Virus record (IMG/VR): IMGVR_UViG_3300013947_000014
Span: 1-31,877 of that record
Strand: one strand, 5' to 3'
Length of the DNA stretch: 31,877 nucleotides
Source of the DNA: a virus
Below are positions 26,448-29,761 of this stretch, one piece after another. Position numbers and translations under genes: made by a program. The notes below the pieces were generated by a model. It ran no database searches and was not told where the DNA came from. It saw only the letters and a program-made list of their open reading frames with translations. Position 1 is the stretch's first letter, and every line of letters starts with the position of its first letter.

Positions 26448-28010
26448 ATGGCAGATCCAACAAAAAATATTGATTTCAAGGAAAACATGGAACTAGGGAA
26501 TGATGATGTCCTCTTAGGAATAAGCGTTGATTCATCAGGAAAACCGACAAAGGCGGGGCATTTCAAATACTCTGTATTCAAGCAATGGCTTACAAACTCG
26601 TTCAGCCCATATGTGACAAGAGCCGAAGAAGCTGTATCAGTTGCCAAATCCAAAGCAGAGGAGGCTTCATCATCCGCATCCAGTGCCAAGACGTATTCTG
26701 CAAATGCAAAAGTGTCAGAGACCAATGCGAAGGCATCCGAAACGAATGCAAAATCCTCTGAGACAAGTGCATCTTCATCTGCTGAGAGCGCATCAGCTTC
26801 AGCAGCTCTTGCTGATACCAAGGCATCCGAGGCAAAGAACAGCGCAACGTCTGCATCGACTTCTGCCTCATCTGCATCCAGTGCTAAAACTGGAGCGGAA
26901 TCGGCTAGGGATGGAGCTGTAACAGCAAAGACTGCTGCTGAAAACTATGCCTCATCTGCATCCGATTCCAAGGATAGCGCATCTGCATCTGCTACTCTGG
27001 CTACAACCAAGGCAACAGAGGCAAGCACTTCTGCTGCAAATGCGAAGGCATCCGAGGCAAATGCAAAAGTATCAGAGACAAAAGCAAAGGAGTATGCGGA
27101 ATCGGCCAATATGAAAAACTATGCCAAAAAGGCAACAACGCTTGCAGGCTATGGGATAACCGATGCATACACCAAGACCGAAGCGGACGGGAAGTACCAG
27201 TTGCTGTCAAAGCTCCTCTCTGTTGGATTCGTCCTAGCTGATGGCAAGGCTGACATACAGATTGGAGACGAGATTGCGGGGCATGGCGGAGTCATCTATG
27301 CAGATTTGGCAGTTGCCAAGATGGGGCTTGATATGACTTGGACAGTGCCTAGTGTCACTTGGAACGAGTACGAGCGTGATGTGCATGGCGTGCATCTCAT
27401 CAAGGACAATGGCAATCCCCGTTACCTTGCGATGGACTATACAGACCTAGGCACAGCGAACAACTATGGCACAGGCACTCAAGCTCTTACTTGGGGACCG
27501 AACGACCAGAACTGGACAGACATGATAGATGGAGTCGGAGCGTTTACAGAATCAGGTGCCAAGTACACGCCTACAGCAGTCACGTACAACGGCATAGCTC
27601 TTGAGGCTGATTGGTGCCCGACTATCGGAAGAAGGAACATGTGGGTGCCGATGTGCATGATGAAGGGCACTGACAACTCGTGGATTGCAAGCGACCTTGC
27701 AAACTCCAACTGGGGCAAGTCGAGCTACTTCTGGAAGGCAGCATGGCTAAAGGCTGGAGCTATTCCTTATGACTACAGCAGAGCTGATAGGACTAAGCAT
27801 CCGTTCTATGTGCCTACCAAGACCGAGATACAAGCTCTCAACAGGGCACACTGGCTCAGGAAGGTCACGAGCTCCTTCCGGCCATGGTATTGGTCATCGA
27901 CTAACTATAGTGACACCCAGGCGTGGTTCGCGTACTTCACCTGGGGAGGCCAGTACGCGTACAGCAAGGTGTACGACGACCTCGCGGTTCGGTTGGTCAG
28001 GACTTTCTGA
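26448..28010 (+). CDS. Tail fibre / receptor-binding protein and DGR target, with a DUF1566/C-type-lectin-like C-terminal domain carrying the VR
   Basis: AGGAG RBS. Ala/Ser-rich shaft repeats (SANAKVSETNAKASETNAKSSE...). Fibre motif TLAGYGITDAYTKTEADGKY. C-terminus PTKTEIQALNRAHW...WYWSSTNYSDTQAWFAYFTWGGQYAYSKVYDDLAVRLVRTF. The last 86 nt pair with the TR. Confidence 0.85.
   Translation: MADPTKNIDFKENMELGNDDVLLGISVDSSGKPTKAGHFKYSVFKQWLTNSFSPYVTRAEEAVSVAKSKAEEASSSASSAKTYSANAKVSETNAKASETNAKSSETSASSSAESASASAALADTKASEAKNSATSASTSASSASSAKTGAESARDGAVTAKTAAENYASSASDSKDSASASATLATTKATEASTSAANAKASEANAKVSETKAKEYAESANMKNYAKKATTLAGYGITDAYTKTEADGKYQLLSKLLSVGFVLADGKADIQIGDEIAGHGGVIYADLAVAKMGLDMTWTVPSVTWNEYERDVHGVHLIKDNGNPRYLAMDYTDLGTANNYGTGTQALTWGPNDQNWTDMIDGVGAFTESGAKYTPTAVTYNGIALEADWCPTIGRRNMWVPMCMMKGTDNSWIASDLANSNWGKSSYFWKAAWLKAGAIPYDYSRADRTKHPFYVPTKTEIQALNRAHWLRKVTSSFRPWYWSSTNYSDTQAWFAYFTWGGQYAYSKVYDDLAVRLVRTF
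27917..28002 (+). repeat. DGR variable repeat (VR)
   Basis: Aligns to 28565-28650 at a constant offset of 648 nt with 71 of 86 identities. All 15 mismatches lie opposite TR adenines. Identity ends at 28003. Confidence 0.9.
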
Positions 28011-28058
28011 TTTTGGGGTTATTTTGCGAGCCTTTTTATAGGCGAGCAAAGGAGGAGT

Positions 28059-28445
28059 ATGGAAAACAAGAGAGGCATGGGAATATACGCAAAGTTCTAT
28101 CCCGATGTCTACAAGAAGACAATCGACATGGCGGAGTTCCTGAACAAGGCGTTCAGGAAATCTGGGATTGCCAAAGGGCTGGTATCAGTTGCAGAGGACA
28201 TCAACTCCGAGCTTGCAGGAATCCTTGCCTTGGTTGTCGAATCCTCATTGTCGCCCGAGAAGGATGTGAAGATAAAAATGATAGAGGGCATATCGCTCAG
28301 GCTCAGGAAGGCGAGAGTCGGGATAGATTACATGTACAGGCTCAGATGCCTTACGGATGGCGAGGTCAAGGTGCTGGCAGAGAAAGGCTTGGAGCTTGCG
28401 AAGATGATGGAGCAATGGAAGAAGAGGACAAGAGAGGCTGTATAG
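28059..28445 (+). CDS. avd: Accessory variability determinant (Avd-like four-helix-bundle protein)
   Basis: AGGAGG RBS. 128 aa, helical and basic. Located between the VR-bearing target and the TR/RT, as in the BPP-1 DGR. Confidence 0.7.
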   Translation: MENKRGMGIYAKFYPDVYKKTIDMAEFLNKAFRKSGIAKGLVSVAEDINSELAGILALVVESSLSPEKDVKIKMIEGISLRLRKARVGIDYMYRLRCLTDGEVKVLAEKGLELAKMMEQWKKRTREAV

Positions 28446-28564
28446 CTTACGGGCGCAATACGGCTGAAGGGAACTATGTTCCTGATGAAAGTGGACTGGC
28501 TGGGTTTCCAGTCGAGGACAGGCTACCGAGAAGCCTCGGGATGCCTTTAAGCAGTCTACATGGA

Positions 28565-28650
28565 CCAGGCGTGGAACGCGAACTTCAACTGGGGAAACCA
28601 GAACACGAACAACAAGGTGAACGACAACAACGAGGTTCGGTTGGTCAGGA
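28565..28650 (+). repeat. DGR template repeat (TR)
   Basis: Non-coding copy of the VR. In the VR frame it reads (D)QAWNANFNWGNQNTNNKVNDNNEVRLVRS with 10 AAC codons and a TAA stop 5 codons upstream. It has 30 adenines, of which 15 differ in the VR. It ends 13 nt before the RT ATG. Confidence 0.9.
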
Positions 28651-28663
28651 GTTGCATCGGAAC

Positions 28664-29761
28664 ATGGATACGGTAAGCTTCGAGGAGCTTGCAGAGGCAT
28701 ACCTCGATTGCAGGAGAAGGAAGAGCACTACCCTCGGCGCAGAGCTGTTCGAGATGGACTTGGCGATGAACATCGCACGGCTTTGCGATGAGATAAACAG
28801 CAGAAGCTACAAGACATCCCCATCCACATGCTTCCTTGTGTACGAGCCAAAGCTGAGGGAGGTGTTCGCATCGCCTTTTCGAGACAGGGTTGTGCACCAT
28901 TTCATAAGAAGGGAGCTTGAGCCGTGCCTCGAGAAGGAGCTGATATACGACACGGCTTCATGCAGGCTAGGCAAGGGCACGCTGTTTGCCGTAAAGAGAG
29001 CCCAGAGGTTCATGAGGCAAGCGCAGGAGAACGAGAATAAAAAGGCGTACTACTTAAGGCTTGATATCTCCGGCTACTTCATGTCCATCGACAGAGACAT
29101 GCTATGGTACAAGATCGATAGGCTCATATCCAAGAGATACAAAGGGACGCATGAGGAATTGCTTAGGTATCTATTGAGGATTGTTATATATGATGACCCG
29201 ACAAAGGATTGCATCTTCAATACTCCGTTTGGAGAGTGGGCATCGTTGCCCAAGAGGAAGAGCCTCTTCTACTCGGACGGCAAGGGACTTCCGATTGGGA
29301 ATCTCACAAGCCAGATGTTCGGCAACCTCTATCTGAGCGAGATTGACCATGCAATCAAAGCGAGGGAGCGATTCTATTCAAGGTATGTTGATGACATGGC
29401 TGTAATTAATATAGACAAGAGCCACTTGCTTGAGACGAGGGACATTGTAGAGGAAAAGCTCTCTGGAATCGGGCTCAAGCTCAACAAGGGGAAGACGCAT
29501 ATCGGGCTATGCGACTACGGCATGGATTATGTCGGCAAGCTGATAAAGCCATACTCGATAACAATCCCTTGCGATTCCGCAAAAAGGATGGCACAAAAGA
29601 TGTCAACGGCTAGGAGCCTTGCTTCCGTGAACAGCATACTTGGATGCGCCAAGGGCTTCATGTCGCAAAGAAGAGCCAGCAAGCTAATCGAGGCAATGCC
29701 CGATGCATATACACTAGACGGCAACAGGATGGTTGCAAAGGAGACGATAACATGGAACTGA
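28664..29761 (+). CDS. DGR reverse transcriptase
   Basis: 365 aa starting [43 protein letters not shown] resembles the Brt N-terminus. It has the DGR-diagnostic [21 protein letters not shown] and the catalytic YVDDMAV. The track ORF start at 27923 is read-through across VR/avd/TR. Confidence 0.9.
   Translation: [365 protein letters not shown]

Follow-up and report, generated by a model that had tools for sequence, protein, structure and literature searches.

A diversity-generating retroelement of BPP-1 architecture in the tail-fibre locus of a temperate, siphovirus-like phage

The IMG/VR virus record IMGVR_UViG_3300013947_000014, analysed here over its positions 1 to 31,877 (the window, 31,877 nt), very probably carries a functional diversity-generating retroelement (DGR) with the architecture of that of Bordetella phage BPP-1, i.e., target gene, avd, template repeat (TR) and reverse transcriptase (RT), located in the tail-fibre locus of a temperate, siphovirus-like phage. 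A first reading of this DNA from the sequence alone had proposed a complete DGR in the mtd-avd-TR-brt layout. Gene order, the affinity of the RT, the differences between the TR and the variable repeat (VR) of the target gene and the variation in the population all support this proposal, and the coordinates that it had given for the three open reading frames (ORFs) of 520, 128 and 365 aa are correct (Table 1). The locus combines an RT with the DGR signature, adenine-only differences between TR and VR, a VR in frame at the 3′ end of its gene and diversification in nature, all of them features of DGRs. We observed the anatomy of the locus, the adenine-only mismatches, the family of the RT, the Avd-like fold in a structural model and the hypervariation at adenine-templated sites, and these observations are presented in the following order: first the repeats and the genes, then the variation among related loci, and finally the mobility of the whole module.

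Table 1. Features of the retroelement and its surroundings (positions in the window)
Feature	Position	Strand	Description
Target tail fibre	26448..28010	+	520 aa; N-terminal Ala/Ser-rich repeat shaft, C-terminal receptor-binding domain ending in VR
Mobile 3.02-kb module	27129..30148	+	receptor-binding domain with VR, avd, TR, RT, ORF124
Variable repeat (VR)	27917..28002	+	encodes QAWFAYFTWGGQYAYSKVYDDLAVRLVR; 8 nt 5′ of stop codon; 71/86 identical to TR
Putative target-recognition end	27986..28025	+	17-nt stretch shared by VR and TR, GGTTCGGTTGGTCAGGA (IMH-like), then VR-specific flank CTTTCTGATTTTGGGGTTATTTT
Avd-like accessory gene	28059..28445	+	128 aa, pI 9.5, predicted four-helix bundle
Template repeat (TR)	28565..28650	+	intergenic; 30 adenines; 10 AAC codons in VR frame
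DGR reverse transcriptase	28664..29761	+	365 aa; IGNLTSQ and YVDD; Pfam RVT_1, PHROG 1423, BPP-1 bRT match
ORF124	29752..30126	+	acidic 124 aa, pI 4.7; overlaps RT stop codon
IMH, initiation of mutagenic homing; pI, isoelectric point.

Repeats, reverse transcriptase and accessory protein

Computational re-alignment of VR and TR was gapless, with a constant offset of 648 nt, and agreed to the base with the ungapped alignment of the sequence-only reading. Each of the 15 mismatches lies opposite a TR adenine (28575, 28576, 28581, 28588, 28596, 28597, 28602, 28605, 28608, 28612, 28620, 28626, 28629, 28630 and 28633, the same positions as listed before), so that 15 of the 30 TR adenines are affected; a specific check for mismatches at non-adenine TR positions found none within the 86 positions. 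Given the base composition of the TR (A30 G26 C20 T10), chance would place every one of the 15 mismatches on an adenine with a probability of 7e-9 (hypergeometric). The earlier interpretation of this pattern as the signature of mutagenic retrohoming is backed by this value and by the natural variation at A sites described below. An independent repeat search recovered the same pair (family D3) and extended it to 28005/28653. The first non-A mismatch comes directly 3′ of the common ...GGTCAGGA, divergence beginning after AGGA. When every TR adenine was replaced by N, the resulting pattern matched two sites in the window, the VR and the TR themselves, vs none expected in shuffled sequences.

Translated in the frame of the VR, the TR reads QAWNANFNWGNQNTNNKVNDNNEVRLVR. 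Its adenines are found at codon positions 1, 2 and 3 in 13, 15 and 1 cases, respectively, and the codons include the ten AAC as well as ACG, GAG and others. Because the adenines are almost confined to the first two codon positions, about 13 residues can be randomised without stop codons, and an AAC-rich TR is the classic design for this. The in-frame VR at the 3′ end of the gene, with adenines at codon positions 1 and 2 (AAY codons), is thus as in other DGRs.

Searches with the RT revealed matches to Pfam RVT_1 (7e-18) and PHROG 1423 (2.9e-81). Its best relative in the PDB is the BPP-1 bRT (8ub7_A, E = 1.8e-28), followed by group II and retron RTs at 1e-7 or weaker. Both sequence motifs and both peptides quoted in the sequence-only reading are present in the translation of an intact ORF. 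The IGNLTSQ and YVDD motifs are undisrupted and align with IGSLTSQ and YMDD of bRT; the RT thereby possesses the motif-4 signature of DGRs, (I/L)GxxxSQ, plus the catalytic YxDD. At 99% identity, the RT belongs to a cluster of 26 members, outside of which the nearest relatives are at most 49% identical. We inspected three of these relatives (46%, 48% and 38% identity), and all are located in target-(b)Avd-TR-RT loci, the targets of which carry Fib_succ_major or Lcl_C domains and the TR and VR of which differ at TR adenines only. Because these relatives at 38-48% identity sit in DGR loci, the RT appears to be nested among genuine DGR reverse transcriptases, as judged from sequence comparison.

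An RT of another class (group II intron, retron or antiviral defence-associated RT), with VR and TR as an ordinary diverged duplication, could be read from the sub-threshold NCBIfam matches to group II intron RT/maturase, Drt3a and retron RTs, which share the RT fold. This explanation is extremely improbable, since the DGR bRT is by far the best solved relative (1.8e-28 vs 1e-7 or weaker), the IGxxxSQ motif is of the DGR type, all inspected RT homologues lie in DGR loci and an adenine-only pattern of mismatches has the above P of ~7e-9. Group II intron and retron RTs were rejected as candidates at 73.8 bits vs a cut-off of 300 for group_II_RT_mat and 45 vs 235 for the retron St85 RT. A scan of the window against Rfam likewise found neither group II intron nor retron RNA, and no family at its gathering score.

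The alignment with bRT supports the start of the RT at position 28664, 13 nt after the end of the TR. So short a gap leaves room for a 3′ spacer RNA element only if it extends into the RT coding sequence, and the RT probably has its ribosome-binding site in the AGGAG with which the TR ends. Between 27923 and 29761, one frame is open over 612 codons and extends from the VR across avd, which is read in a different frame, and through the TR into the RT gene; therefore, gene callers often annotate an RT of 448 aa that swallows the TR. At the other end of the gene, an exact direct repeat of 19 nt (GCGCCAAGGGCTTCATGTC) occurs at 29646-29664 and 29816-29834, 170 nt apart. AKGFMS is encoded by each copy, the first in the 3′ end of the RT gene and the second in ORF124; we judge this match to be far longer than expected by chance in 4 kb.

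The protein encoded between target and TR is basic (pI 9.52) and was modelled with AlphaFold2 (AF2) as four helices at a mean predicted local distance difference test (pLDDT) score of 86.9. Its top Foldseek matches in the PDB were 2rld, 4dwl (BPP-1 Avd) and 8ub7_B (the Avd chain of the bRT-Avd complex), with E values of ~0.015, and these top structural matches of the model represent the Avd/S23-IVP family. Superposition on 4dwl gave template modelling (TM) scores of 0.73/0.86 and a root-mean-square deviation of 1.8 Å at a sequence identity of ~13%. No Pfam match was found, and an exhaustive HMMER search returned only two distant relatives, one of which gives a weak bAvd match. As the sequence thresholds failed and relatives are few, the assignment to Avd rests on structure, and it is made here with the qualification that fold, size, charge and position carry it. 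Known Avd proteins have a mean pI of 9.5, and that of BPP-1 is 128 aa long (Wu et al. 2018, PMC5758913). The 128-aa Avd-like helical protein of the sequence-only reading fits an Avd in predicted fold, size, pI and position, whereas the thresholds of sequence families are not reached.

The target gene is positioned after the tape-measure gene (20473-23037) and the gene for a 1130-aa tail protein. Residues 40-254 match PHROG tail-fibre families with E values down to 1.7e-12. In the shaft (26660-27110), several families of imperfect, 21-nt-phased direct repeats encode Ala/Ser-rich ...SETNAKASE... units. Such repeat units are typical of phage fibre shafts. The only Pfam family matched by the receptor-binding domain is Lcl_C (PF07603, DUF1566): the last 64 aa give a weak match below cut-off (E = 3.9e-4), and 4 of 19 family members match it, the best with E = 2.4e-5, below the gathering score. 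The VR peptide follows the pattern YWSST...AWxxxFxxGxxxxxxKxxxxxVRLVR. A profile search found no sequence relative of this domain in the PDB; apart from the weak Lcl_C match, it is a sequence orphan beyond its own clusters. Just upstream of the TR-homologous region (27874-27916), residues that the present TR does not template are nevertheless polymorphic among relatives, in the motifs SF[R/W][P/S/T][W/L/R]YW and Y[S/G][D/N][T/S][Q/H/L], and these haplotypes are common to different phage backbones.

The 3′ end of the VR and the adjoining flank (Table 1) may act as the element by which the target is recognised. Across all VRs compared, the 17-nt end shared with the TR (27986-28002) is invariant and its two adenines never vary. 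Because both stay fixed, the boundary of marker transfer can be placed between 28633 and 28647, where an IMH-like element would put it. The 23-nt VR-specific flank is conserved wherever the VR travels, and homology both to a large phage lacking the cassette and to a truncated VR copy (see below) stops at 28025. RNA of the avd-TR-RT 5′ region, folded as a single sequence, gave a z score of -3.3, a value on which no structural claim is based.

Standard mutagenic retrohoming is the explanation with the best support; within it, priming of the cDNA, the complex of Avd and RT and the homing step are proposed here by analogy with the biochemistry of BPP-1. A transcript spanning the TR (28565-28650 plus flanking RNA) would be bound by the RT together with the basic Avd-like protein and copied to cDNA, with random bases inserted opposite the template adenines. 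This cDNA would then replace the VR at the 3′ end of the fibre gene, with the shared 17-nt end and the VR-specific flank 3′ of it setting the direction. In the receptor-binding surface, about 13 residues would be randomised, with W, F, G, Q, K and V residues of the scaffold remaining fixed, and the outcome would be a phage population with differing receptor specificities.

Natural variation of the variable repeat

We compared the DNA of 27 related loci, of which 21 contain a TR, 20 a full VR and 17 a VR plus a local TR. The TRs of the 21 assemblies fall into just three alleles, set apart by one or two A-to-G changes, vs 13 VR alleles in the 20 assemblies, which are 97-100% identical elsewhere. 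Variable sites in the VR comprise 25 of the 30 adenine-templated but only 8 of the 56 other positions (Fisher P = 3e-10), and the latter eight are all singletons, confined to three VR alleles. Per-site pairwise diversity amounts to 0.248 in the VR vs 0.028 over the preceding 660 nt. Of the 17 loci with a local TR, 15 have a VR free of non-A mismatches to it. At the protein level, the target clusters (14 and 22 members) are ~90-97% identical and hypervariable at the residues templated by AAC. These observations support natural diversification of the VR at adenine-templated sites, and with it the earlier suggestion that the phage diversifies its receptor-binding tip.

The variation could also be explained by a relic, i.e., a DGR once active and now fixed, with VR alleles as old standing variation that homologous recombination has shuffled. 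The occurrence of one VR allele in five window-type assemblies and of a near-identical allele (3 nt different) in the large phage (L001), the upstream haplotypes (SF[RW][PST][WLR]YW) common to several backbones, which indicate recombination of the domain, and the non-A substitutions in some alleles would fit such a history. We regard it as quite improbable, because every copy has an intact RT, Avd and TR with <3% divergence, the 13 VR alleles occur next to upstream sequence in which the backbones differ by only ~2.8% per site, and the variation is almost exclusively at A-templated sites. Moreover, most alleles agree fully with the local TR at non-A positions, whereas drift is expected had homing stopped.

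Several points weigh against a functional DGR of the type proposed here. With regard to the proteins, the NCBIfam profile DivGenRetAVD (NF033474), covered over its full length, scores the Avd-like protein at 15.5 bits vs a cut-off of 80 (E = 0.016), and the AF2 model of the variable domain, built on a shallow alignment, reaches a pLDDT of 30, so that a C-type-lectin fold is unconfirmed. Folding of the region downstream of the VR yielded a weak 5-bp hairpin in the VR-specific flank (z = -2.1) and no strong GC-rich hairpin like that of BPP-1. Some VR alleles contain non-A changes (five in L004, three in L010, one in L015), showing that ordinary mutation operates as well. The VR allele of the window is identical in five assemblies (the window, L012, L023, L025 and L026, some of which may come from the same samples), and therefore diversification is not continuous (episodic), or this allele is strongly selected. 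Finally, activity was deduced from differences between assemblies, i.e., at the level of populations and not within samples. The functional DGR remains the preferred explanation of the locus.

A mobile module and a large phage without the cassette

BLAST comparison of the window with the related loci showed that exactly the 3020 bp from 27129 to 30148 are 97.5-98.2% identical in a different backbone (L005, L006 and L015). This second type of phage (also L021 and L022) has a genome of ~49 kb, a 624-aa fibre, other tail genes and another integrase, and the identical RT protein (P0268) is encoded in both backbones. The left edge of the module lies within a widespread conserved fibre motif, KATTLAGYGITDAYTK, the right edge just after ORF124, and its GC content is 0.509 vs 0.431 for the rest of the window. 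These comparisons point to a 3-kb cassette that moves between different phages.

ORF124 follows the RT in every copy of the cassette in both backbones and is always co-inherited, although no match was found for it in Pfam, PHROG or the PDB. A role as fibre chaperone or as DGR accessory factor would be a guess. In two distant DGR loci (L019 and L020), small ORFs unrelated to ORF124 overlap the RT stop codon, too.

The variable domain was found in a third phage, represented by L001, L003 and L004 (each at 10001-10843 of the locus) on contigs of 141, 98 and 24 kb; the two larger ones are ERZ26858458 NODE_35 (141,094 bp) and ERZ26858510 NODE_76 (97,694 bp). Here, a stand-alone gene for 280 aa is 94-97.5% identical to window positions 27252-28025 only, a segment that takes in domain and VR together with the 17-nt shared end and its 23-nt flank. 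In the 20 kb read of the 141-kb and 98-kb contigs, neither RT nor TR was found within 10 kb on either side of this gene. Sample ERZ26858458 has the cassette on a separate contig of 2.2 kb at 6x coverage and the large phage at 93x, so that this cassette is not part of the large phage. Its VRs differ between samples, and in two of the three loci (L001 and L003) they match the cassette TR at all 56 non-A positions. One allele lineage (L004, P0127, P0130, P0147) has five non-A changes, which is what a VR should show once overwriting has ceased. The 3′ end of the VR occurs in L003 once more, as a truncated copy at 14170-14222 (minus strand). It consists of 33 nt with changes at A sites, then the 17-nt shared end and the downstream flank, and ends a small ORF (...DGNLEVRLVRTF*); this copy may be the footprint of aberrant homing or recombination.

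The VR of the large phage could be served by an RT and TR of its own at a distance, be exchanged by recombination with phages that bear the cassette, or be diversified in trans. According to the last possibility, the cassette would act on the cognate VR of the large phage when both phages share a host cell, and would serve several phages of one host as a common source of diversification. The VRs of L001 and L003 differ from each other and yet match this TR at all non-A positions, the homology of the large phage does not go beyond the segment from the domain to the 23-nt flank, and RT and TR are missing from the 10 kb on either side, with the cassette on a separate contig. In addition, plasmid-borne avd-TR-brt of BPP-1 is functional in trans (Wu et al. 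2018, PMC5758913). Nevertheless, we consider both the trans action and the shared service rather unlikely. As 20 kb of the 141-kb and 98-kb contigs were read, the large phage may have its own RT and TR farther off, and phage DGRs often have non-adjacent targets at distances within 50 kb (PMC5758913). Recombination is supported, since VR alleles and upstream haplotypes are common to several backbones, which points to exchange in place of action in trans. The allele lineage with five non-A changes also speaks against action in trans. Remote targets were argued not to occur for phage DGRs, as they are not co-inherited (Wu et al. 2018, PMC5758913). If diversification in trans were true, one phage would exploit the DGR of another, contrary to this argument.

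Phage context and comparison with known systems

The window represents a temperate, siphovirus-like phage with genes for an integrase, ParB, DnaD/DnaC-like loaders, large terminase, portal, protease, major capsid protein, tape measure, the 1130-aa tail protein and the fibre. Because its ends are identical over 78 nt (1-78 and 31800-31877), and because the lysis-side genes run straight into the integrase region in a related contig (L002/L024), it appears to be a circularly assembled complete genome of ~31.8 kb. We found no tRNA and no Rfam family in the window. In one related locus (L023, 14314-15894), a 526-aa DDE_Tnp_1 transposase gene takes the place that a 250-aa minus-strand ORF has in the window, upstream of the integrase, in a phage that is otherwise of the window type.

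Leads to the host conflict, and host assignment failed. One fibre homologue is labelled ‘uncultured Prevotella sp.’, whereas the capsid protein has a single genome match, on a 30-kb contig of a ‘Flexilinea sp.’ metagenome-assembled genome. Shine-Dalgarno-like motifs, often AAGGAGG, precede 15 of the 21 gene starts checked, and such strong usage fits Prevotella poorly in our judgement.

The exact VR/TR pattern and the RT protein had no match in the IMG/VR viral contigs, from which a 32-mer specific for the large phage is also absent. Megablast searches with the cassette, the first 25 kb of the window and the large-phage locus gave no match in GenBank phages. The VR/TR 3′ pattern was not matched in GTDB genomes; in the metagenome collection, it identified two further cassette loci only.

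The closest known system is the DGR of BPP-1. The order of genes (mtd-avd-TR-brt), the VR at the extreme 3′ end of a tail-fibre gene, the intergenic TR and a basic 128-aa four-helix-bundle accessory protein (here predicted) are common to both, as are adenine-only mutagenesis and the bias for AAC codons; bRT is the closest solved relative of the RT, with IGxxxSQ and YxDD aligned. In contrast to BPP-1, the target has no detectable similarity to Mtd and its VR is Lcl_C/DUF1566-like, the TR is shorter (86 nt) and ends 13 nt before the RT start codon, the 3′ end shared by VR and TR is a 17-nt mixed sequence with a weak hairpin instead of a GC-only IMH, and Avd is identical at only ~13% of its residues. 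The TR of BPP-1 measures 134 nt.

With regard to the variable domain, the VR peptide pattern and the Lcl_C match resemble the Legionella LdtA DGR (DUF1566/Lcl_C-type, CLec2, category ‘d’), and architecture B (avd-TR-RT) corresponds to LdtA-type DGRs as well (PMC5758913). Unlike in LdtA, the domain is joined to the shaft of a phage tail fibre and not part of a lipoprotein, and its Lcl_C matches are below the gathering score, with the fold unverified. A locus of Phocaeicola plebeius (L020) has an RT of 38% identity, the same order of target (Lcl_C), bAvd, TR and RT, and A-only mismatches. The DGRs of gut phages and Bacteroidales, among them this locus and the Hankyphage-type elements (Benler et al. 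2018, PMC6199706), share the context of a temperate phage and tail proteins as targets. The present system differs from the DGRs of gut phages and Bacteroidales in that its RT is at most 49% identical to any RT outside its own 99% cluster, and in that the Avd-like protein and the receptor-binding domain have essentially no relatives by sequence beyond their own clusters.

Among phages, DGRs with tail-fibre targets are numerous and well documented in catalogues (Roux et al. 2021, PMC8144416; Benler et al. 2018, PMC6199706). As tens of thousands of members of the class have been catalogued, one more well-formed example is of modest importance. What is unusual is solely the exchange of the cassette between phages and a third phage with a matching variable tip and no cassette in view. 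The identical RT/TR cassette in two backbones, a cassette-less carrier of the variable domain and at least 13 VR alleles constitute a natural data set for studying how receptor-binding modules and mutagenesis machinery are exchanged among co-infecting phages, and for testing whether a DGR can serve targets on another phage.

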